Shown one piece after another: positions 11,965-33,856 of a stretch of DNA of 34,325 nucleotides. The notes under the pieces are model-generated. The model saw only the letters and a program-made list of their open reading frames with translations, was not told the origin of the DNA and made no database searches. Source of the stretch: Kiloniellales bacterium (lineage in GTDB: Bacteria > Pseudomonadota > Alphaproteobacteria > JBHICX01); NCBI GenBank assembly GCA_046759805.1, contig JBHICX010000001.1, forward strand, positions 1-34,325, given 5' to 3'. The position numbers were made by a program, and so were the translations under genes. The first letter of the stretch is position 1. Each line of letters opens with the position of its first letter.

Positions 11965-12469
11965 GGGATGACTCGGTTCATTTTGTCGGTGGGGGCCTGT
12001 TATAGCGAATTCGCAATAGCATGGGGGAGCGATCCTGCCGTTGCCGCAGCCCCGGAGGGCGGTTTCGACGGCGTTCCTGTGGCGACCGAAAAATTGCATA
12101 AGGGATATTATGGATAATCCTATTTAAGTCTTAATTATAAATCGTTATCGTCCTTAATTCACGTTGCAGATTAAAATTGCACGCTTATTCCGCTACATCC
12201 GGATAGAACTGGCAGCGCGATCGTTGGGCGGCGGGCTAAGCCATGACGCTGGCCACCACGCGCAGTCGACATTGTTGGCTAACCCGTCAAGGAACGGGCG
12301 CCGCCGGTCGGCGCCACGCAATCGCTCAGTATCCACCGGATACTTTGTCGGTATCACGTGCGCGGATACGGATGGGCCGGTTCTCCCGAGTGCACGGATC
12401 TGGCCTCCCTTGTCCGACAGCCGCCCGCGGTTCCGGACGCGAAATAACGCCAATCATTCATTGTACCGA

Positions 12470-12483
12470 TTGATTCACGTCAA
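12470..12483. promoter_or_regulatory. FixK/FNR-type box candidate, TTGATTCACGTCAA (TTGA-N6-TCAA)
   Basis: 9/10 match to TTGAT-N4-ATCAA and a perfect TTGA-N6-TCAA. Lies about 150-160 bp upstream of the 12632/12644 start, in a non-coding leader. Confidence 0.35.
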
Positions 12484-12631
12484 TGCGCCTGAACGGGTGC
12501 TGGTATACGAAGCATCTTGAAGAATTTGGATGGCCGAAAGGTATCGTTTGGAAGAATCTTGCTTCGTGCCTTGCCGGAGTTGCATTTTGTTGCAGGTCAT
12601 GTGACCGGATATTGTTGGAAAACGAAACATA

Positions 12632-13126
12632 GTGAGCTCAGCCATGTCGAGACATCGCATCATCGGCCTGGTCGGCGCGTTGATCGTCTGGCTTCTGGGA
12701 ACGTTTTCGGCCGCCGCATCACCGGGCGGTCCGAATTGGTCCCAGACGGTCGACGGCATGCTGGTCCACCTGGGAATTATGTCGACCCAGGTAATGAGGC
12801 AACACCCGGACCAATATCCTGAGCATTTCATCGAGGGGGAACCCCCAGCAGGCAGACACATGTACCACGTTCTGGTGACCGTTTTCGAGCGCTCCAGCGG
12901 CGAGCGCATTACCAATGCCGATGTAGAAATGCGGGTTTCACCGATTGGCCTTGCCGGTCGGCAAAAGCATCTTCATGCGATGTCAGTCCGCGGCGCGGCT
13001 TGTTATTGCAATTACTTCTACATGCCGCCCACGGATAGCTATCGGATCAGCGTGCAAATCCGTCGGCCGGGGGTGCCGGTGGTGGCCCGAGCGAAATTCC
13101 TTTACACGCACCACCGCGGGCCCTGA
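12632..13126 (+). CDS. Hypothetical exported protein (possibly a YtkA/FixH-like Ig-fold, unverified)
   Basis: Signal peptide MSRHRIIGLVGALIVWLLGTFSAAA|SP, with an alternative ATG start at 12644. The beta-rich pattern HMYHVLVTVFERSSGERITNADVEMRVSPIG...YRISVQIRRPG resembles small periplasmic metal-handling domains. No family assignment is possible by eye. Confidence 0.55.
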   Translation: MSSAMSRHRIIGLVGALIVWLLGTFSAAASPGGPNWSQTVDGMLVHLGIMSTQVMRQHPDQYPEHFIEGEPPAGRHMYHVLVTVFERSSGERITNADVEMRVSPIGLAGRQKHLHAMSVRGAACYCNYFYMPPTDSYRISVQIRRPGVPVVARAKFLYTHHRGP

Positions 13127-13265: not shown

Positions 13266-13516
13266 GATCGCGAGGGTAAGCCGTGATTGTGTTTGCGCGC
13301 CGCGGTCAGGTGGTCGACCGTGGCCGCATGACTTCAGCAAGCGAAAGCCGTGACGCCGTCGGAGGTCCTGCCCTTTGACCGCGGAAATAGGAGCCGATTT
13401 CCCAGTTCCATTGGTACGACTCTTGCGGTCGCCGCGATTTACACCTCGATCACCATGCCGTCGTAGGCAGGCTCGACGCCGGGCAGACATTTGGCTGCCA
13501 GCCGGTCGAGTAGTCG
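13266..13516. repeat. Left copy of an imperfect ~250-bp direct repeat (partner at 18549-18797)
   Basis: By-eye alignment gives about 16 mismatches plus one 2-nt indel over ~250 nt (roughly 93% identity). Both copies are in the same orientation. Confidence 0.85.
13439..13516 (-). pseudogene. Orphan 3' fragment of the MBL-fold hydrolase gene (duplicate of the last ~25 codons of 18722-19489)
   Basis: Translates ...DRLAAKCLPGVEPAYDGMVIEV*, against ...DRLAAKCPPGVEPAYDGLVIEV* in the intact gene. Upstream of this the reading frame has no similarity to the MBL protein. Confidence 0.7.
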
Positions 13517-13752: not shown

Positions 13753-14106
13753 ATGAAGAGACGGTTTCTTCGCCGCCTGTTAGCCTGTCTCCTGGTGACC
13801 GCTCTCGTCACCGGCACGGGGGTGCCTGTGGCCATGGTCCAGGCCGGTCACGGTCACGGGGCAACGCCGGCCGACCAAGCTCAAGTAATGCCGGGCTGCG
13901 ATCCGGTCCAGGCGCTGGGCACGGGCTGCAAGTACTGCGCGCCGTGCGTTATGTTGTGTTGCGACGAGGTGATTGTCGCCGCCGCCCCCGCGCTCGAGCC
14001 CCCGCTGCCCGAACTCACGGTCGGTTTCGTCGACCGGACGCCGGGCGTCCGGCGTTCCATCGAGGCCAAGTTCCCTCGAGGTCCTCCCCATCCCTTCCAG
14101 GACTGA
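13753..14106 (+). CDS. Small secreted Cys-rich protein, DUF2946-like (tentative)
   Basis: Signal peptide MKRRFLRRLLACLLVTALVTGTGVPVAMVQA|GHGHG. Cys cluster CDPVQALGTGCKYCAPCVMLCC. Pro-rich tail ending ...FPRGPPHPFQD, reminiscent of the C.(Y/F)C ... PRAPP layout I remember for DUF2946. Confidence 0.6.
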   Translation: MKRRFLRRLLACLLVTALVTGTGVPVAMVQAGHGHGATPADQAQVMPGCDPVQALGTGCKYCAPCVMLCCDEVIVAAAPALEPPLPELTVGFVDRTPGVRRSIEAKFPRGPPHPFQD

Positions 14107-14307: not shown

Positions 14308-15135
14308 ATGGTTAGGGAAGATCCTGTCAACGGGACCCGGGACAGTCGTCAATCTCACCTGACGACGCGACGGGGTTTCGTCACCGGCCTCGGCTTTGGC
14401 GTGGTGAGTCTTTACGGTCTGTGGGCCGCTTACGGGGCCGCGCCGACCAGCCTCAAATTCCTGTCCGGCGCCGCGTCAGGCGGCATGGGAGCCGCAGGGC
14501 ACGGCCACGGCGGTCACGGCGGCGGAGGGATGTCGCGCGAGGAGTTCAACCGCCTGGCCGACGAGTTCTTCGAGGCCAACGCGCTTCCCGACGGCAGCGT
14601 GAAGCCGGTCCGTCGTAGGGTCGCGGCGATCTCGGGCCAAGCCCATGAGGGTCACGCAGATGAGCCGGAGATGTCCGCAGCCAAAGAGCACGAACACGGG
14701 CACGAGGCGGAGGCCCACGACCGTGGCGCTCGCGAGCCGAGGATGTCCATGGCCGAAGAGCACGAGCACGGGCCCGAGGCCGAAGCGCACGAACACGGTG
14801 CGGCCCCGCCGAGCATGTCCATGGCTGAAGAGCACGAGCACGGAGACGAAGAAGGGCCGATCGAGGTCTACGTCAGGGCCTCAAGGTACGGCTACGAGCC
14901 CGATGTGCTGCGGCTGGAGCCCAATATCCCCTACAAATTCAGGATGATGGCCGTCGATGCGGACCACGGCGTCTCAATCAGTATGCGCATGGGCAGCCAC
15001 ATGATGCGCTGCCGAGCGAGAGTTCTGACCGAAGCGATCCTGATGTTCACGGCGCCCGGCGAGTACCTGTGCTACTGCACCGTTTATTGCGGTGAGGGCC
15101 ATGACATGATGATGGGCACGATCGTCGTGGCATAG
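14308..15135 (+). CDS. CuA-type cupredoxin subunit II of a B-family-like heme-copper oxidase, with a Tat-like signal/anchor and a His-rich repeat linker
   Basis: The C-terminus PGEYLCYCTVYCGEGHDMMMGTIVVA aligns with ba3 CbaB PGEYRIICNQYCGLGHQNMFGTIVV. The full CuA ligand set is present: DADHGV His, then C-x3-C-x3-H-x2-M at 15076-15111. N-terminal TRRGFVTGLGFGVVSLYGLWAAYGA. RBS GGAGGGAAGAG. Confidence 0.88.
   Translation: MVREDPVNGTRDSRQSHLTTRRGFVTGLGFGVVSLYGLWAAYGAAPTSLKFLSGAASGGMGAAGHGHGGHGGGGMSREEFNRLADEFFEANALPDGSVKPVRRRVAAISGQAHEGHADEPEMSAAKEHEHGHEAEAHDRGAREPRMSMAEEHEHGPEAEAHEHGAAPPSMSMAEEHEHGDEEGPIEVYVRASRYGYEPDVLRLEPNIPYKFRMMAVDADHGVSISMRMGSHMMRCRARVLTEAILMFTAPGEYLCYCTVYCGEGHDMMMGTIVVA
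14671..14843 (+). repeat. 72-bp in-frame tandem repeat (about 2.4 copies) encoding MS(A/M)A(K/E)EHEHG(H/P)EAEAH..GA..P..
   Basis: Units start at 14671, 14743 and 14815 (ATGTCC...GAGCACGA(A/G)CACGG). They lie inside the linker of the cupredoxin gene. Confidence 0.8.
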
Positions 15136-15158: not shown

Positions 15159-16829
15159 ATGACTGAGAGCAAGTTGGTCGAAGGCCTGAAGCGCCTGCCC
15201 GGCGGCGACAGGGCGCTGCTCGACGGCTTTGTCGCCATGGCCGTGCTCAGCCTGGGGCTCGGTCTCGTCTACGGCGCGCTGACGGCCTTCGCCCGCGCCG
15301 GCTTCATCACCCTGGAGCCCGAGGTCGCGTATCCGACGCTGACCCTCCACGGGGTCACGATCTTCTTCTACTGGCTCTACTTCGCCCAGGCGGGCCTGGT
15401 CCTCATCCTCGCCTGTGTGTACACCGAGGGCGCCAAGCGGCTGGCGTGGAGCCCGCTGGCGTGGCTCGGGCTTGGCCTCATGGTCGCGGGATTCGCCTTG
15501 AGCGAGCTGATGCCGATCATGGGCGCGGTCATGCTGTACGACGGCCAGCCGGAGCTGATCGGCTACGAGATGACGGAGGGCGGCCTGTTCTACGTCGGCT
15601 ACATCCTTCTCGGCCTGGGACTGTTTGTGGTCGGCGTATCCAGCATTTCCACCGCCCTCAAACCGCGCTTTGAAGGGAAGATCGAGTCCTGGTCATCGGT
15701 CAGCTTCGCCAGCGTCGCCTGGGCCGGCCTGCTCATGGTGAGCGCCATGGCCGCGATCAACGCCTTCCTGCCGGCGGCCTGGTGGGCATTCGGTTTCGGA
15801 CCAGCGCCATCGGGCTATACCATGAGCTGGCACGTGCTGTTCCACAATGTCCATTACCTGCCGCTGATGGCCACGGTGGTGCTGTGGTATGTGCTGATGG
15901 ACGAGCTGGCCGGCGTCGAGTCGATCTTCGGGCGCCGGTTTTCCAAGATCGTCTTCGCCCTCTATTTGATCTTCGTGCCGCCGACGTCGCTGTACCACAT
16001 GTTCCTGGAACCCAACCTCGCGGACTCGGTGAGGATACTGGGATCGTTGTTGTCGTTGTTCATCGGCGTGCCGACCGTGCTCGTCTTTTTGATCATCATC
16101 GCTTCGCTGGAGTCGCACGCCAGGGCGCACGGCGCCCGCGGCCTGTTCGGCTGGGTGCGCATGCTGCCCTGGCGCAATCCGGCGATGGCCGCGATCGGCA
16201 TGGCGGTGGTCAACCTGGCCCTCGGGGGCGCCTTTTCCTTCGTCCTGATCCAGGAGAAGCTGGCGCCGCTGTTGAGCGACACCTTCTTCGTCCCGGGCTA
16301 CTTCCACTTCCTGACCCTGGGCACGGTGACGCTCACCTTCATCGCCGCGTTCATGTACGTGATTCCGGGCCTGACCGGCCGTCAGCTGTGGAACCCCTCG
16401 CTGCTCGCCAAGCTGCCGTACATCGCGACCGTCGGCCTGCTGATCTTCGGCGGCGCCGGCATCCTCGCCGGCTACATGGGCGTGCCGCGGCGCCTGTTCG
16501 ACGTGAGCTACGAGGGCCGGGCGCCGGAGATCTGGCAAACGCTGATGTTCGTCGTCGGCATCGGCGCCGTGCTCATGACCGCCGCATTGGCGGCCTACGT
16601 CTTCGGCCTGGTTAGGACACTGTTCGGGCGCCCGAGCGAGGCCGGGGCCGAGACGGCCAACCTCGCGGCCGTGTCGTGGGGCGGGATCAGCGTCGGCCGC
16701 CAGGCGGCCTGGGTCGGGCCGCTGTCCGTGCTCGTCCTCATCGCCGCCATGTACGCGTTCACCGCGGTCGGCTTCGAGCTCATGCAAAGCCTGCCGATCG
16801 TGGCGACTGGCGGAGGCGGTGGACATTAG
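15159..16829 (+). CDS. Heme-copper oxidase superfamily subunit I, B-family (ba3)-like, with non-canonical active-site ligands
   Basis: Long collinear similarity to ba3 CbaA as I remember it: LTLHGV; ASLE..A...GARGLFGW.R.LPW.NPA; FVPG.FH...VTLT; LPNLTG/IPGLTG; VPRR. About 12-13 hydrophobic helices. Sits 23 nt after subunit II. See the findings for the Y279 and Y381 substitutions. Confidence 0.9.
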   Translation: MTESKLVEGLKRLPGGDRALLDGFVAMAVLSLGLGLVYGALTAFARAGFITLEPEVAYPTLTLHGVTIFFYWLYFAQAGLVLILACVYTEGAKRLAWSPLAWLGLGLMVAGFALSELMPIMGAVMLYDGQPELIGYEMTEGGLFYVGYILLGLGLFVVGVSSISTALKPRFEGKIESWSSVSFASVAWAGLLMVSAMAAINAFLPAAWWAFGFGPAPSGYTMSWHVLFHNVHYLPLMATVVLWYVLMDELAGVESIFGRRFSKIVFALYLIFVPPTSLYHMFLEPNLADSVRILGSLLSLFIGVPTVLVFLIIIASLESHARAHGARGLFGWVRMLPWRNPAMAAIGMAVVNLALGGAFSFVLIQEKLAPLLSDTFFVPGYFHFLTLGTVTLTFIAAFMYVIPGLTGRQLWNPSLLAKLPYIATVGLLIFGGAGILAGYMGVPRRLFDVSYEGRAPEIWQTLMFVVGIGAVLMTAALAAYVFGLVRTLFGRPSEAGAETANLAAVSWGGISVGRQAAWVGPLSVLVLIAAMYAFTAVGFELMQSLPIVATGGGGGH

Positions 16830-16849: not shown

Positions 16850-17074
16850 ATGACGAAAGACGCCTGGCTGTTCGCGATCGTGTTCCTGGTCTGGCTGGTC
16901 CTGTCGGTCCTGTACTACACGGTGCCCATGATCTACATGCCGACCACGGGGCGCGTGTGGGGCCTGGGCGCGCTCCTGTTCCTGGTGCTCGCGGCCGTCG
17001 TTCTGTACGCGCAGCACAAGGGAAAGAGCCGGCGCGCTGCCGCCGAGTCCGAAGTGGCAGAGAGCCGAAAGTAA
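16850..17074 (+). CDS. Small two-TM membrane protein (candidate accessory oxidase subunit)
   Basis: Strong RBS GAGGAGG 7 nt upstream of the ATG. Two hydrophobic helices (AWLFAIVFLVWLVLSVLYYTV and VWGLGALLFLVLAAVVLYAQ) and a basic tail. Sits 20 nt after subunit I. Confidence 0.65.
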   Translation: MTKDAWLFAIVFLVWLVLSVLYYTVPMIYMPTTGRVWGLGALLFLVLAAVVLYAQHKGKSRRAAAESEVAESRK

Positions 17075-17265
17075 CCCCGAGAAGCGGAGGTCGTGGGGAA
17101 CGGTCGGCCGCCCAGGACGGCCGGTCCTGGGGGGGTGATCTACATCAATGACGGATCTGCCTGGAGGCGGATGAATGACAGGCTGGGGCCAAGTCCATAG
17201 GCAACGGATGGGACGAACGGCCCGCCGCCGACGCTATCGGCGTGCCCCCAGGGGAGAAGACGGGG

Positions 17266-18258
17266 ATGTCTCACTGGCATGTGAGCTTTGGCGGCGGCGT
17301 CCGCCTCGTTGTGACGGCCGTCGCGGCGGCCGCGGCCATGCAGGTCGCGATGGCGTGGGCGGACCACGCCCAGGGTCCGGTGAATGTGATCGGCGAACCG
17401 GAGTCGGCGGCAACAGTCGGCACCGACGACCCTGGGGCGGGCCAGGAGCCGAGGCTTCGCCTGGGCATGCCGGTCATGGACTCCGAGAACGGCATGCGGC
17501 TGTTCGCCGGGATGGGCTGTGTCGTGTGTCACGCGATCAACGGGGTGGGCGGGCACGATGCCAAGAACCTCGATGCCCACTCCACGCACCCCGTGGTCAG
17601 TGCCTTCGATTTCTCCGCCAAGATGTGGGCCATCCCCGCAGACATGGCGGGGGACCGGAAACGGGCGCTCGGTCATCGATTCGCATTCAGCGGCGATGAA
17701 CTGGCCGACCTCGCCGCCTTCGTGGGCGACGACGACCAGCAGCACAGGTTCACCGAAGCGCACATTCCACCCGAGATCAGGAAGCTGATGCGTCACAGCC
17801 ACGGCGGCAAACAGGCCCATCAGGACGAGCTGAGGAATTTCCAGCCCGAAGAGGTCTACATGGTGGCGCCGATGATGGAGCCCGAGGAGGGCATGCGGCT
17901 ATTCGTCAGCAAAGGCTGCGTCGTCTGTCACGCGATCAACGGCGTGGGCGGAGACGATGCCAAGAACCTCGATGCCGAGAGTCTCGCTGCCGGGAACCCA
18001 GACGCCCACTCCGGCCACACCTTTTTGAATCCTTTCGATTTCGCCGCCAGCATGTGGTCCGTGAGCCCGGGCATGATCGAGGCTCAGCACCGTATCGCGG
18101 GCCATCGGTTCCTGTTCACGGCCGTAGAGCTGTCCGACATCATCGCCTTCGTTCACGACGGCGAGCAGCAGAGAAATTTCACCGAGGCGCACGTTCCGCC
18201 CGAAATGAAGACCATCATCGACCAGACCCGCGCCGGCCAGTCGGCCGATCCGGACTAG
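17266..18258 (+). CDS. Periplasmic dihaem c-type cytochrome (two tandem class-I-like domains)
   Basis: Two CxxCH sites in near-identical contexts (GMGCVVCHAINGVGGHDAKNLDA and SKGCVVCHAINGVGGDDAKNLDA), each followed by FDF(S/A)A(K/S)MW as candidate Met ligands. Signal peptide MSHWHVSFGGGVRLVVTAVAAAAAMQVAMAWA|D. The ORF-track start at 17242 is also possible. Confidence 0.85.
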   Translation: MSHWHVSFGGGVRLVVTAVAAAAAMQVAMAWADHAQGPVNVIGEPESAATVGTDDPGAGQEPRLRLGMPVMDSENGMRLFAGMGCVVCHAINGVGGHDAKNLDAHSTHPVVSAFDFSAKMWAIPADMAGDRKRALGHRFAFSGDELADLAAFVGDDDQQHRFTEAHIPPEIRKLMRHSHGGKQAHQDELRNFQPEEVYMVAPMMEPEEGMRLFVSKGCVVCHAINGVGGDDAKNLDAESLAAGNPDAHSGHTFLNPFDFAASMWSVSPGMIEAQHRIAGHRFLFTAVELSDIIAFVHDGEQQRNFTEAHVPPEMKTIIDQTRAGQSADPD

Positions 18259-18548: not shown

Positions 18549-18797
18549 GATCGCGAGGGTAAGCCGTGACTGTGTTTGCGCGCCGCGGTCAGGTGGTCGA
18601 CCGTGGCCGCATGACTTCAACAGGCCAAAGTCTTGACGCCGTCGGAGGCCCTGCTTTTTGACCGCGGAAGTATGAGTCGATTTCCCAGTTCCATTGGTAC
18701 GACTCTTGCGGTCGCCGCGATTTACACCTCGATCACCAGGCCGTCGTAGGCAGGCTCGACGCCGGGCGGACACTTGGCCGCCAGCCGGTCGTAGTCG
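18549..18797. repeat. Right copy of the ~250-bp direct repeat (partner at 13266-13516)
   Basis: Covers about 173 nt downstream of the MBL gene plus its last ~25 codons. See the left copy. Confidence 0.85.
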
Positions 18798-19489
18798 AGG
18801 CTCGTGTTCATATGGGTTAGCACGGCCCGACCTGGCCGCAGGCGCTCGATCCAGCCAAGAGTCTTCTCCAGATGGGCATGGGTTGGGTGCGGCGCCTCGC
18901 GCAGGCAATCGACGATCCATAGGCCGATGCCGTCCAGCGCTTCGAAGGCCGCCTCCGGAAGCTCGACCAGGTCGGTCGAATAGGCCAGTTGCCCGAACCG
19001 GAACCCGAGCGTGGCGCCCGGAAAGCCGTGGTCCTGTTCGAACGGGCGGATGTCGATGTCCCCGACCGAGAATGGGCCGTCAATGATATGCGGCTCCACC
19101 AACGGCCCGTAGAAGTCTGATTCGCCTTCCATTCCCTCGACCGCGTACCCGAAGCGTTGGCGGATCTCCGTGAGCGTCCCGGCGTCGGCGTGAATCGGTA
19201 TCGGCCGCCCCGTGAGGCGCTTCATTTGCCGCAGGTCGTCGATGCCGTGCAGGTGGTCGGCATGGGCATGGGTGTAGAGCACCGCGTCCAGCCGGGTGAC
19301 CCCCGCAGCCAAGAGCTGCCGGCGCAGGTCCGGCGTGGTATCGACCACCAGGGTGGTATTGGCCTCTTGCACCAGGATCGAGGCTCGGAGCCGCCGGTTG
19401 CGCGGGTTCGCGGGATCGCAGTCGCCCCAGTCGCCGCCGATCTGCGGCACCCCGCCGGAGCCGCCGCAGCCCAGGATGGTCACCCGCAT
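18722..19489 (-). CDS. MBL-fold metallo-hydrolase (PhnP/YcbL-like)
   Basis: MRVTILGCGGSGGVP... and the HxHxDH motif YTHAHADHLHG. 255 aa. Lies directly downstream of tatD, as in many alphaproteobacteria. Confidence 0.85.
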   Translation of the reverse strand: MRVTILGCGGSGGVPQIGGDWGDCDPANPRNRRLRASILVQEANTTLVVDTTPDLRRQLLAAGVTRLDAVLYTHAHADHLHGIDDLRQMKRLTGRPIPIHADAGTLTEIRQRFGYAVEGMEGESDFYGPLVEPHIIDGPFSVGDIDIRPFEQDHGFPGATLGFRFGQLAYSTDLVELPEAAFEALDGIGLWIVDCLREAPHPTHAHLEKTLGWIERLRPGRAVLTHMNTSLDYDRLAAKCPPGVEPAYDGLVIEV

Positions 19490-29944: not shown

Positions 29945-31372
29945 ATGCCACTCGACTGCAAGACTCCAGAAGATGCTTTGAAGGCGATCAAGGACCACAA
30001 GGTGCAGATGATCGACGTCCGCATGACCGACCTGCCCGGCCTGTGGCAACACTTCTCGGTGCCGGTGAGCTCGGTGGACGCCGACACCTTCGCCGACGGA
30101 ATCGGCTTCGACGGGTCGTCGATCCGTGGTTTCCAGGAGATTCATGAAAGCGACATGCTGGTCATTCCCGATCCGACGACCGCGTTCCTGGACCCGTTCA
30201 CCGAGGTGCCGACGCTGAACCTGATTTGCAACGTGCGCGATCCGGTGACCGGGCAGGCCTACAGCCGCGACGCCCGCCACATCGCCCAAAAGGCCGAGGC
30301 GTACCTGAAAGAGATCGGGGTCGGCGACAGCGCATATTTCGGGCCCGAGGCGGAGTTCTTCGTGTTCAACGACATTCGCTACGGCCAGGCGACCAACTTC
30401 GCCTTCCACGAGATTGATGCGGTTGAGGGCAATTGGACATCGGGCGACGAACAGAACCCGAACCTTGGCCACAAGCCGCGGCCCAAGGAGGGCTACTTCC
30501 CGGTGCCGCCGTCCGACTCCATGCAGGACGTGCGCACCGAGATGGTGCTGATCCTGGAGGAGATCGGCATCCAGGTCGAGGTCCACCACCACGAGGTGGC
30601 GACCGCTGGCCAGGCTGAGATCGACATGCGATTTGCGCCCCTCACCCGCATGGCCGACAACCTGATGATCTACAAGTACGTCGTGAAGAACGTCGCCAAG
30701 CGGCGCGCTATGACGGCCACTTTCATGCCGAAGCCGCTGTTCGACGACAATGGCTCGGGCATGCACGTCCACCAAAGCGTCTGGCAGGGGGACACGCCGC
30801 TGTTCTACGGCGAGGAGGATTACGCCGGCTTGAGTCAGCTCGGCCACTACTACATCGGAGGCCTGTTGAAGCACACCGCCGCCCTGTGCGCGATCGTGGC
30901 GCCCACCACCAACTCCTACCACCGCCTGGTGCCGGGCTTCGAGGCGCCGATTAACCTAGTCTATTCGCAGCGCAACCGGTCGGCGTGCTGCCGCATCCCG
31001 GTGTACTCGCCCGACCCGAAGACGAAACGGGTGGAGTTCCGCCCGCCGGACGGGGCGGCCAACGGATACCTCGCCTTCGCCGCCATGCTGATGGCCGGTC
31101 TGGACGGCATCGAGAACCGGATCGACCCGGGCGAGCCCATCGACAAGAACCTGTACGACCTGCCGCCGGAGGAAGCGGCGAAGGTGACCTCGACCCCGGC
31201 CTCGCTCGAGCAGGCGCTGGACGCGCTAGAGGCGGACCACGACTTCCTGCTCAAGGGCGACGTGTTCACCCCGGATGTGATCGAGACCTACCTCAGCTAC
31301 AAGCGCAACGAGGTCGACCAGTTGCGCCTGCGCCCGCATCCTTACGAGTTCTACCTGTACTACGACACCTGA
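29945..31372 (+). CDS. glnA: Glutamine synthetase type I
   Basis: [31 protein letters not shown] and NRSACCRIP. Adenylylation-site context [23 protein letters not shown] upstream of ATG 29945. Confidence 0.96.
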
Positions 31373-32268
31373 TCGGCGCGGCGCCTCATCGGCGTTGGGC
31401 TTGAGGCACTGCATTGACTTGCCGGCCGCGGCTGCCACCAGAGCACAATAGCAGTCTGGAACAGCCGCGACCTTACAGCCGCCGCCGACCATCCCTGACC
31501 CGGTGCAGCTGCACGAGCAACCGGACGAATCGGAACCGGGTTCGCGAACAAGTCATCCTTGCACCTGGTCGCCTTCGCCCAACGCGACTCACTAGTTCAT
31601 GTGTCGTCCCAACGAACGGTTATACGTCCCTGTTTTCCTGGACACTCGACACCTTGCGACCGGTCACCAGGTAGCAGTGACAAGCTGAACTTGCAACTGA
31701 ACAGATTATTCGGTTGCCTGGGTCAGATATAGGCCTATCGCGTTGATACTAAATCTCTAACGCCGCCAACTTGTCCAATTAATCCACCGGACAACTCATC
31801 TCACAAAAGGCTATAGAAAGTTTAGGTAAGTTTCACTAATGGCGTAGAAAATCATGTGAGATGTTGAAAGATCTGCAGATTTTATTGGTAAAATCGTTGG
31901 CAGTCGAAGGGTTTCAAATGACAGGTATGGTTGTTAGGAGGCCGCATGAGGATAACTTGCGCGCACCGGCCGTCATTTCGGTCGGCCGAAATCTCAATTG
32001 TGTGCTTGAAAACAGTTACTTCCACCCTGGTCATTGCACCGCGCGGCAACTGCACAAGCCGCAAGGCCGACGTCGGCACCGACAATACAGGCAAGGACCT
32101 GCGAATCGAGCTCACTGGCTGCTGTCGTCGGTTCGCGCGAGTTCCCCGCGGCCAAGAGAGGGTCTCATAGCGCTGGCTTAGCGACCCTGTGGGCGTTGTC
32201 TCTTTTAACGTCCGCGTACGATCCGCGATGGGGTTGCGCCTCGCGAGGCCGAAGCGGGAGGCGCGGGG

Positions 32269-32358
32269 TGGCGGATGGGGTGGGATTCGAACCCACGAGG
32301 GGGCTCACCCCCTGCCGGTTTTCAAGACCGGTGCCTTCAACCGCTCGGCCACCCATCC
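32269..32358 (-). tRNA. tRNA-Ser (anticodon UGA), CCA encoded
   Basis: The reverse complement folds as acceptor GGATGGG/CCCATCC, D-arm GGCCGAGCGGTTGAAGGC, anticodon stem-loop CCGGT-CTTGAAA-ACCGG, a long variable arm CAGGGGGTGAGCCCCCTC, T-arm GTGGG-TTCGAAT-CCCAC, discriminator G, then CCA. Confidence 0.93.
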
Positions 32359-32542
32359 GTTGCTTGCATGTCAACCACTTGCGACGCGGACCGCCCAAGC
32401 CGCGCCGGCGACCGGCGTCATCGCCGCGTCTTCTAGCGCGACCGGCGGGGCGGCGTCCACAGGGTCTGTCCCATTCCCTGCCTTCACGCGATCAAAGGCG
32501 AGCGATCGCGCGGCGTCTGCGCAACCGCTGTGCCTCACTCCC

Positions 32543-33856
32543 TCATCGGTTCTTTTCAGGACCAATGATCAGTCCCCGTTTCGCGAGATCCGCCACGATG
32601 GTGCCGACGTCGTGTTCTATCTGTGCTTCAGGAACCGTGGGGAATGCCTTTTGCAGCACGTCCATGGCGTCTTGCAACCGAATCGGTTGGTCGAGCAACC
32701 GCCACAGCGCCGCGCCAACAAAATTGAGATGATAGATCGCCTCGCCGGCAGAACTGACCAGGAACAGCTCGTCACCCACCCGACGCTCGTGGATGCCCGA
32801 GGCGCGCCGGAGATCACCCGTCACCGCGCCGTCCGGCGACTTCCCACTGACGGATGCGCGTGCGGAACGCTCCGGTACGCAGGATCGGCGGCGCGCGGGC
32901 CAGCCCTTGAACCTTTGCCTGAGCAACTCTGCGGCTTCGTCGGCGGCGCCGTAGCGCAGCCTGAAACATTGTGCGGCTTCAACCAAGTTGTGAAGACGCT
33001 CGAGAATATCGGTGGCCGGAACCTTGCCGGCGAAGTTCTGCAAAATCACTCGCTTCAGCATCTCGCTCCTATTGACCGGCGTCAACTCCGGCCGGCCGCC
33101 CGGTTCGCGACGTAGAAGGACGAACGCGCCGATCGGGGCTTCCTTGCCCTTGACCGCCAGGTTCGCAGCGTCAACCTCCAGGTAAATGAAGCGTTGGTTG
33201 CGTAGCCCCGAGTGGCGGCGCACGTAATTCCGGAACTCGGCCGCGACGCCGTCCGGTAGTGGGCGCCGCAGTCGCGGCAGGACGCCGGGAGCCACGGCCG
33301 TGTTGGCGCGGCTTTTGATCGGCAGGACGTCATCGGCGTAAACCCGCATGCCGGCCGCTGCCAGGTGACCGGAAAGCAGGCTTTTTCCCGCCTCGTAGCG
33401 GCTCGGAAAGACGACAAGCCGGCCAGCGAACTCGGCCGCGGCGGCGTGCAGGTGGCACAACAGCGACGGATCGGCCGCCACCGACGACTTGATCAAATCG
33501 ACGATGAAGCTGCAGACCGCATCGACCTCATTGCGGTACACGACCATTGACGACCGCCAATACGACTCCAGGCCGTACCCCTTGGAGGTCTTGCGGATGG
33601 TTATGATTGGCGGCGTTTCAGGTGCAGCCGAGACGTCGCGACACCGCCAGCCGCGGAGTACCGCGGCGATGGGTGCCGCCAAAATATCGCAGCCAATCAG
33701 GGCGACCGGTCGGGTCAGCGGTTCGAAAAGCAGCAGCATCGCAGACATCGTATCGGACAGGCCCGGCGCAGTCACGCCGCTGGGGCCGCCAACGTCAAGG
33801 ATCGCTGGCGGCCTCGAACGAGATGATAGTAGCGTAGGCGCCGAGCAGACCGGCAC
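32543..33856 (-). CDS. Fusion protein: HprK-related (P-loop) kinase-like domain plus a C-terminal PqqD/RRE-like domain
   Basis: The central LHAAAAEFAGRLVVFPSRYEAGKSLLSGHLAAAGMRVYADDVLPI resembles the HPr-kinase C-terminal P-loop region. The C-terminal ~90 aa (VGDELFLVSSAGEAIYHLNFVGAALWRLLDQPIRLQDAMDVLQKAFP...IEHDVGTIVADLAKRGLI) has the PqqD-family pattern. The start is uncertain, with alternative ATGs at 33748 and 33739. Confidence 0.6.
   Translation of the reverse strand: MPVCSAPTLLSSRSRPPAILDVGGPSGVTAPGLSDTMSAMLLLFEPLTRPVALIGCDILAAPIAAVLRGWRCRDVSAAPETPPIITIRKTSKGYGLESYWRSSMVVYRNEVDAVCSFIVDLIKSSVAADPSLLCHLHAAAAEFAGRLVVFPSRYEAGKSLLSGHLAAAGMRVYADDVLPIKSRANTAVAPGVLPRLRRPLPDGVAAEFRNYVRRHSGLRNQRFIYLEVDAANLAVKGKEAPIGAFVLLRREPGGRPELTPVNRSEMLKRVILQNFAGKVPATDILERLHNLVEAAQCFRLRYGAADEAAELLRQRFKGWPARRRSCVPERSARASVSGKSPDGAVTGDLRRASGIHERRVGDELFLVSSAGEAIYHLNFVGAALWRLLDQPIRLQDAMDVLQKAFPTVPEAQIEHDVGTIVADLAKRGLIIGPEKNR

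Follow-up and report, generated by a model that had tools for sequence, protein, structure and literature searches.

The window analyzed in this work is a stretch of 34,325 nucleotides (nt) from a Kiloniellales bacterium (assembly GCA_046759805.1, contig JBHICX010000001.1, positions 1 to 34,325 of the forward strand), and all coordinates refer to it. On the forward strand, positions 15159–16829 encode subunit I of a haem-copper oxidoreductase (HCO) in which tyrosines stand in the columns of two metal-ligating histidines. The open reading frame (ORF) is unbroken; it starts with an ATG preceded by a GGAGG-like site, ends with TAG, and gives a protein of 556 residues. Residues 24–472 match the Pfam family COX1 (PF00115) with an E value of 1.3e-41 and 143 bits (cut-off 34.8), and a phmmer search of the PDB returned subunit I of the Thermus thermophilus ba3 oxidase as the best match (E about 1e-31).

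The HMMER alignment of this protein with ba3 subunit I is locally ungapped around the ligand-bearing helices. The low-spin haem ligands, H64 (CAC, 15348–15350) and H383 (CAC), align with their ba3 counterparts and are conserved. In helix VI, the motif F228-H229-N230-V231-H232-Y233 (15840–15857, forward strand), which was also examined in the comparison of the clade with the B family, lies over GHPIVY, placing H229 (CAC) at ba3 H233 and Y233 (TAC) at ba3 Y237; the His-x3-Tyr pair of the B family is present and invariant. In helix VII, SLYHMF lies over GFHHQF, so that Y279 (TAC, 15993–15995, forward strand) occupies the column of ba3 H282, the first His of the ‘HH’ pair and a CuB ligand, and H280 (CAC) that of H283. 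Likewise, VPGYFHF over VPGHFHL aligns Y381 (TAC, 16299–16301, forward strand) with H384, which in ba3 ligates the high-spin haem on the proximal side, and H383 with H386. The proximal His of the catalytic haem, found across the HCO superfamily, is not present, Y381 being in its column, and the three-His CuB/FeB set of the superfamily is incomplete, with H229 and H280 retained and Y279 replacing the third. The invariant H232 (CAT) might substitute for the CuB His replaced by Y279. The sequence-only reading of this DNA had listed an intact 556-codon ORF with the positions of these codons, five retained ligand or cross-link residues (H64, H229, Y233, H280, and H383), and Tyr in the CuB-His and proximal-His columns; the ORF and codon positions were exactly as given, the five residues were all found aligned to ba3, and no His appeared in either column.

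A model of subunit I obtained with AlphaFold2 (AF2) displayed the HCO fold (predicted local distance difference test, pLDDT, 83.1; predicted template modelling score, pTM, 0.88), and its best PDB matches in Foldseek were ba3 oxidases, with a template modelling (TM) score of about 0.76. The ba3 enzymes of T. thermophilus (1EHK/3S8F) and Aquifex aeolicus (7DEG) are thus the best match both in sequence and in fold. The arginine pair that contacts the haem propionates, R449/R450 in ba3, is retained as R444/R445, which argues that both haems are still bound. The NCBIfam models produced only CtaD matches to subunit I far below threshold, indicating that no curated model of that collection covers the Tyr/Tyr family; in the databases these proteins are labelled ‘cbb3-type’ or ‘ba3-type cytochrome c oxidase subunit I’.

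Searching 5.8 billion proteins by a word index returned 825 matches at E <1e-10, and the best 120 of them (59–87% identity) were compared residue by residue. All 120 retain H229, N230, H232, Y233, Y279, H280, and Y381, and 131 positions are nearly invariant among them; the closest relatives, at 86–87% identity, are metagenome-assembled genomes of Rhodospirillales or Alphaproteobacteria, and an exact-sequence look-up returned no entry identical to the window protein. We also gathered 84 genomic loci, 80 from a scan of one genome per GTDB species and four fetched earlier, which span Alpha-, Beta-, and Gammaproteobacteria and include the cultured Azospirillum brasilense, A. oryzae, A. melinis, and A. 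soli. Three matches to Azospirillum megaplasmids or chromids were found in PLSDB. Y279, Y381, H229, H232, Y233, and H280 are present in 84/84 loci, and Y279, Y381, and H232 were invariant in every set inspected (121/121 sequences, 85/85 sequences, and 15/15 deep representatives). H232, which the earlier reading had pointed out as an additional His, is therefore co-invariant with the two tyrosines. Among the loci, TAC and TAT are both used at the two positions (62/22 at Y279 and 33/51 at Y381), the pattern of purifying selection on the amino acid.

These observations bear on whether the gene could be a decayed or non-catalytic paralogue, or whether its Tyr codons could be sequencing errors, given that a single substitution separates each TAC from CAC. 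Both Tyr are shared by all of the more than 200 homologues while the synonymous codons vary, the 131 nearly invariant positions hold across 59–87% identity, the ORF is intact, the gene module is conserved, and the CuA and low-spin haem sites are retained. This explanation is effectively refuted by the conservation, and we give it almost no weight; sequencing error and pseudogene were rejected because the tyrosines are conserved across homologues. The view that the TAC codons are genuine and that the gene is not decaying was borne out, since both Tyr recur in every homologue with synonymous codons in use and the gene is under selection, with an intact ORF and a conserved three-gene module. Nor is this copy a lone degenerate paralogue, as Y279 and Y381 define one clade with conserved subunit II and small-protein neighbors.

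The limits of this clade were explored by searching 1.84 billion cluster representatives exhaustively with HMMER for deep homologues. The motif set FHxxHY / YH / YxH persists among the representatives down to about 30% identity, and the next matches beyond it are canonical B-family sequences (GHPxVY / HH / HxH); no representative with only one of the two Tyr was found among those searched. In a neighbor-joining tree of 39 representatives, a distance tree without support values, 15 full-length Tyr/Tyr representatives form one clade, set off from two others, the canonical B clade and one with HxxQY/HxxQQ, and they do not group with canonical B sequences. The same tree contains, paired inside the B clade, two B-like HCO representatives without most of the CuB ligands, P0177 (N..EY / VR / H.H) and P0239 (Q..TY / AN / S.H), which may belong to another undescribed or degenerate lineage.

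A pattern of this kind has been named before. The I, J, and K families of HCOs were introduced as ‘not previously reported’ in a 2019 preprint (Murali, Hemp, Orphan, Bisk 2019, bioRxiv 10.1101/592808), in which a single sentence, with no biochemistry, describes the ‘J family’ as having ‘two tyrosines replacing histidines’, and J is counted among 11 ‘O2-reductase families’. The replacement there of a His of the active-site metal and of the His of the high-spin haem by Tyr corresponds to Y279 and Y381 here; this is a match by description alone, as the preprint text holds no sequences, taxa, or gene context. Literature searches on HCOs with a proximal tyrosine or tyrosinate, on the J family, and on ba3 V236/G232 yielded nothing beyond this preprint and the ba3 structure paper, and the later papers of the same group do not mention the J family. 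A 2024 PNAS survey of HCO diversity does not describe the Tyr/Tyr pattern and calls the gNOR change (His to Asp) the first replacement of an active-site His. The sequence-only reading had allowed that the pattern might already define a characterized family; this holds for the name, J family, and fails for the characterization, since that family is uncharacterized. The Tyr/Tyr pattern was already named in 2019, and the gene in the window is a further member rather than something categorically new. We are highly confident that it is a functional member, maintained by selection, of a distinct clade of HCO homologues that derives from the B type and matches the described J family. What is new here is the three-gene module, the further residue switches of the clade, its frequent placement beside copper/silver efflux genes, and its island-like insertion.

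To define the switches, 15 clade representatives were compared with 15 canonical B representatives, retaining the positions that are invariant within each group and different between them. The switches comprise, from ba3 to the clade, G232 to F228, V236 to H232, W239 to P235, V279 to T276, H282 to Y279, and H384 to Y381. In the 1.8 Å structure of ba3, the carbonyl of Gly232 lies at the active-site end of the O2 channel, and in R. sphaeroides the corresponding substitution, G283V, is strongly inhibitory to the access of O2 (PMC3141039). Mutants of ba3 at V236 (A, I, L, M, N, and T) fill the list of PDB matches. The proton-uptake path of ba3 runs through Glu15(II), T315, Y248, T312, Y244, S309, the haem hydroxyl, and Y237 (PMC3141039). 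Only Y248 (Y244 of the window protein) and S309 (T306) survive in the clade; ba3 Y244 and T312 are both V, T315 is I, L, or V, S261 is G or S, and no Glu corresponding to Glu15(II) is seen in the membrane-anchor segment of the subunit II consensus. In addition, ba3 H376, N377, and D372, which were mapped by hand from the alignment and then tallied, are S, D, and A. The K-path that characterizes the B family is absent from the Tyr/Tyr clade and, judging from these residues, most of the B-type cytoplasmic proton path appears to be lost or hydrophobic. A canonical B-family oxidase was rejected on the grounds of the separate clade and the lost K-path.

A variant B-type terminal oxidase that still reduces O2 to water, in which the tyrosines only tune potentials or affinity or protect the site from inhibitors, accommodates part of these data. 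The H229-x3-Y233 pair is invariant, and an active-site Tyr is the criterion used in the field for O2 reductases (PMC11214002); the 2019 preprint classes J among them, and the CuA center of the partner subunit II is intact, as are the propionate arginines and the ligands of the low-spin haem. However, a proximal tyrosinate, being anionic, is expected to shift the haem's midpoint potential strongly downwards (10.1101/592808), which would make its reduction by CuA or haem b unfavourable. Moreover, an invariant Phe stands at the O2-channel Gly, where the comparable G283V substitution is so inhibitory, the path for the four cytoplasmic protons needed per O2 is mostly gone, and no characterized HCO oxygen reductase is known to be without the proximal His. 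We consider this explanation the main rival of the peroxide reductase favored below, and only a little less likely than it.

Only three genes are universally linked across the 84 loci, namely those for a subunit II-like protein, subunit I, and a small hydrophobic protein. Subunit II, a protein of 275 residues in the window (14308–15135, forward strand), was identified by comparing its family profile with the PDB and by the conservation of its ligands; its gene lies directly upstream of that for subunit I in 83 of the 84 loci. Its layout consists of a Tat-like TTRRGF motif with a membrane anchor, a linker rich in His, Met, and Glu, and a cupredoxin domain. A profile of 30 sequences matched the ba3 CuA domain with E 3e-17 and with the ligands aligned, and H220, C257, C261, H265, and M268 (window numbering) are invariant in 30/30 sequences, so that subunit II is a CuA-containing cupredoxin protein, as in the B family. 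The N-terminus, with a conserved HxTTRRGFI motif and a hydrophobic segment after it, looks like a signal-anchor of the twin-arginine translocation (Tat) pathway. The linker varies in length and, apart from a conserved GGHG motif, shows little sequence conservation; in the window it is lengthened by two 72-nt tandem units (14641–14784, forward strand; 74% identity, repeat family D3) that encode His/Glu/Met-rich repeats of 24 residues (…EHEHGxEAEAH…). The third member, of 74 residues in the window (16850–17074, forward strand), begins 20 nt past the subunit I stop codon and probably has two membrane helices. A small subunit of 60–74 residues lies directly downstream of subunit I in at least 65 of the 84 loci by tblastn, and its gene was called in loci L001–L004. 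In the gammaproteobacterial loci L013, L014, and L016–L019, it is a 128-residue tandem duplication of a unit of about 60 residues (e.g., L018:9705-10091).

Taken one by one, the features of the clade place it close to ba3 with defined departures. The His-x3-Tyr pair, the low-spin ligands, the Arg pair, a CuA-bearing subunit II, and a small extra membrane subunit are common to both. In contrast to ba3, the clade carries H282Y, H384Y, V236H, and G232F, has lost the K-path residues, and is changed at H376, N377, and D372, and its subunit II differs by the Tat-like motif and the His-rich linker. The sequence-only reading had considered a non-catalytic role; this is unlikely, given the intact CuA site, low-spin haem ligands, and haem-propionate arginines.

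Downstream of the module in the window, a gene for a dihaem c-type cytochrome of 338 residues (17242–18258, forward strand; Pfam Cytochrom_C, E 1.6e-10) arose by internal duplication (17469–17577 and 17868–17976; 84% DNA identity; repeat D2), with GCVVCH in each half. Relatives of this cytochrome are found near the HCO gene in only 5 of the 84 loci, placing it outside the universal core, and it is likely the electron donor in the window cassette. Upstream of subunit II lies a gene for a secreted His- and Cys-rich protein of 117 residues (orf117; 13753–14106, forward strand) with a full-length, sub-threshold match to DUF2946 (E 0.12). His-rich ‘CCP’ analogues of it occur upstream of subunit II in about 30 loci, in Azospirillaceae and a few others, and its membership in the HCO system is uncertain. 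Further upstream, orf164 (12632–13126) encodes a secreted or anchored protein of 164 residues; in loci L032 and L051, relatives of it lie close to the Tyr/Tyr HCO. No family match was obtained for orf164 even at E 10, and a FixH/YtkA-like fold, suspected from its sequence pattern, was discarded as nothing supports it. The region of orf164 coincides with a dip in GC content to 0.555 (12001–13000), compared with about 0.65–0.70 elsewhere.

Heavy-metal efflux genes were found within 8 kb of the HCO genes in 28 of the 62 loci of at least 12 kb, counted without matched control loci. They belong to two separate lineages with different systems. The Azospirillaceae loci carry a CusB-like adaptor, a resistance-nodulation-division (RND) pump, an outer-membrane factor, an ICMT-like protein, DUF2933, and a Met-rich LTXXQ protein, and in the betaproteobacterial and related loci the system is a P1B ATPase with YHS/HMBD domains, accompanied in one locus by CusF and a two-component system. 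The LTXXQ protein of the Azospirillum loci (L061:5102-5950, minus strand) is a periplasmic protein of 282 residues that contains long runs rich in Met and Gly and has its LTXXQ domain at the C-terminus; it sits between the DUF2933/ICMT-like pair and the HCO module and adjoins the RND pump, the adaptor of which has a His-rich N-terminus.

This placement raises the possibility that the system is an electron sink of copper handling, either oxidizing Cu(I) held on the subunit II linker as a cuprous oxidase or serving as a copper-stress branch of respiration. Such a role concerns the donor and the physiology and is compatible with either peroxide or O2 as the acceptor. It would fit the metal-efflux neighbors (CusB-like/RND/OEP, P1B ATPase, CusF) in 28 of the 62 long loci and in two lineages, the His/Met/Glu-rich linker with its conserved GGHG motif, and the small His/Cys-rich secreted protein encoded upstream. 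However, metal genes are missing from the surroundings of more than half of the loci, those of the window and its nearest relatives among them; the association may simply arise because both reside on the same genomic islands; the linker shows poor conservation of both sequence and length; and the cytochrome c of the cassette is a conventional donor. For these reasons we regard it as rather improbable.

Beyond the metal genes, a Pfam census of neighbors (137 ORFs from 26 loci without metal genes) disclosed no recurrent theme; the most frequent entries were two-component systems (5), thioredoxins (3), and MtrC-like cytochromes (3). Apart from the three core genes, the surroundings of the closest relatives of the window offer no clue. 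In the window, the cassette lies within a housekeeping region with the order ntrC-ntrY-ntrX-trkA … hflX-IMPase-mazG, cassette, metallo-β-lactamase (MBL) hydrolase-tatD-metG-holB-tmk. It is bracketed by two direct repeats of 243 nt (D1; 13266–13508 on the left and 18549–18791 on the right, not assigned to a strand) with 93% identity and a spacing of 5283 nt. The repeat consists of the last 70 nt of the MBL-hydrolase gene (18722–19489, minus strand) plus 173 nt of downstream sequence; the right copy overlaps the true 3′ end of this gene and the left copy duplicates it. The two repeats look like the attL and attR ends of an element integrated into the housekeeping region. No integrase gene lies between them. 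The bracketing repeats, and an integrase gene that adjoins the HCO module in another lineage, indicate that the module behaves as a mobile cassette. Elsewhere in the window, a second GC dip (about 0.575; 31000–32500) surrounds a tRNA-Ser(TGA) gene (32269–32358, minus strand), and a 437-residue ORF beside it (32543–33856, minus strand) has a C-terminal PqqD domain; this region may be another insertion point or encode a recognition protein for ribosomally synthesized and post-translationally modified peptides (RiPP).

Several lineages derived from the B family (eNOR, sNOR, gNOR, nNOR, and bNOR) are known or predicted nitric oxide reductases (NORs), and the Tyr/Tyr clade could be one more. Remodelled B-derived HCOs have repeatedly been shown or predicted to be NORs, among them gNOR, a predicted NO reductase in which a CuB His is also replaced by an anionic residue, Asp. 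The loss of the B-type cytoplasmic proton path that the clade appears to have undergone also recalls cNOR, which has no conserved cytoplasmic proton channel and takes its protons from the periplasm (PMC11214002). However, all NOR families are without the active-site Tyr (PMC11214002), whereas Y233 is invariant here, the clade is without a conserved NOR-type ligand (Glu or Asn), nir, nor, and nos families are not among the recurrent neighbors of the loci, and NO reduction would also need a reducible haem. Unlike the clade, which keeps both Tyr and CuA, gNOR has neither the cross-link Tyr nor the CuA ligands, and no proximal His-to-Tyr change has been described in it; cNOR, a relative of the C family, differs by its cytochrome c subunit, its FeB with three His and a Glu, its proximal His, and the absence of an active-site Tyr. 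We therefore judge an NO reductase to be very unlikely.

A functional analogy, in an unrelated fold, is offered by the haem catalases, the active site of which has a proximal Tyr and a distal His and Asn. The clade would share the proximal tyrosinate and the distal His, and most of its members have an Asn as well; in the ferric state, a haem arranged in this manner reacts with peroxide and not with O2. In contrast, catalases are soluble, contain no copper, and have no electron-input chain, whereas the haem of the clade would lie in a 12-helix HCO scaffold beside a second metal and be wired to CuA; the resemblance is one that we infer. The change of the O2-channel Gly to Phe and the loss of the K-path make catalase-like chemistry or a different substrate, as proposed from the sequence by the earlier reading, more plausible, and neither is proof.

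From the features described above, we tentatively favor a non-pumping, cytochrome c-dependent reductase of peroxide or a similar oxidant with a role in stress defence, a reading that we hold as plausible and somewhat short of probable. Electrons delivered by a periplasmic donor, which in the window is probably the dihaem cytochrome c, would enter at CuA, move on to the bis-His haem (H64/H383), and end at the binuclear site. At this site, Tyr381 would take the position of the proximal His of the catalytic haem, and the second metal would keep H280 and also H229, from which Y233 is separated by the cross-link spacing, with Y279 in place of the third His and H232 as a new residue. Two anionic tyrosinates would favor Fe(III)/Fe(IV) and Cu(II), and this stabilization of oxidized or high-valent metals would most likely mean that the enzyme does not bind O2 through ferrous haem. 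Its substrate would be an oxidant with reactivity towards the ferric form, hydrogen peroxide being the first candidate. An enzyme with a polar substrate that draws its protons from the periplasm and its electrons from cytochrome c, with no proton pumping, would fit both a hydrophobic gas channel that is blocked and a cytoplasmic proton path that is missing. The module would then act in periplasmic defence against oxidative or copper stress, a role suggested by its frequent presence in copper/silver efflux islands and by its behavior as a mobile cassette. The broader claim, that the clade represents a third chemistry beside O2 and NO reduction, carried out by a CuA-fed membrane peroxide reductase with a catalase-like haem beside a Tyr/His-ligated copper and encoded on a mobile cassette and often together with Cu/Ag efflux, is more doubtful.

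Several observations weigh against a peroxide reductase. The His-Tyr cross-link pair is strictly retained, and this pair is a recognized signature of the O2 reductases of the superfamily (PMC11214002), among the families of which J was placed (10.1101/592808). The confidence of the AF2 model is lowest near helix VII (pLDDT 57–60 for residues 271–300), and both the metal coordination attributed to Y381 and Y279 and the orientation of H232 would follow from homology with ba3 only. N230, the counterpart of the catalase Asn, varies in deep members, in which it is V, I, or M. No conserved neighbor specific for peroxide was found among the loci; the metal-efflux association is suggestive, and no metal genes lie near the HCO in the window and its closest relatives (L005–L024).

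It is common practice to regard the six metal-ligating His of subunit I as a constant of the haem-copper oxidoreductases, and all mechanistic models of O2 and NO reduction are built around the proximal His of the catalytic haem. The Tyr/Tyr clade, conserved in hundreds of bacteria, ranks among the most radical departures from the usual active site within the superfamily and, as it keeps the electron input and the His-Tyr pair, constitutes a natural experiment on what the HCO scaffold is capable of. Genetic manipulation of A. brasilense is routine, and given the occurrence of the system in cultivable Azospirillum, its function should be directly testable there. If the new chemistry is true, a superfamily with a central place in respiration and the nitrogen cycle would have a wider catalytic repertoire, and genes annotated as ‘cbb3-type’ or ‘ba3-type’ would be miscounted when aerobic capacity is inferred from genomes.

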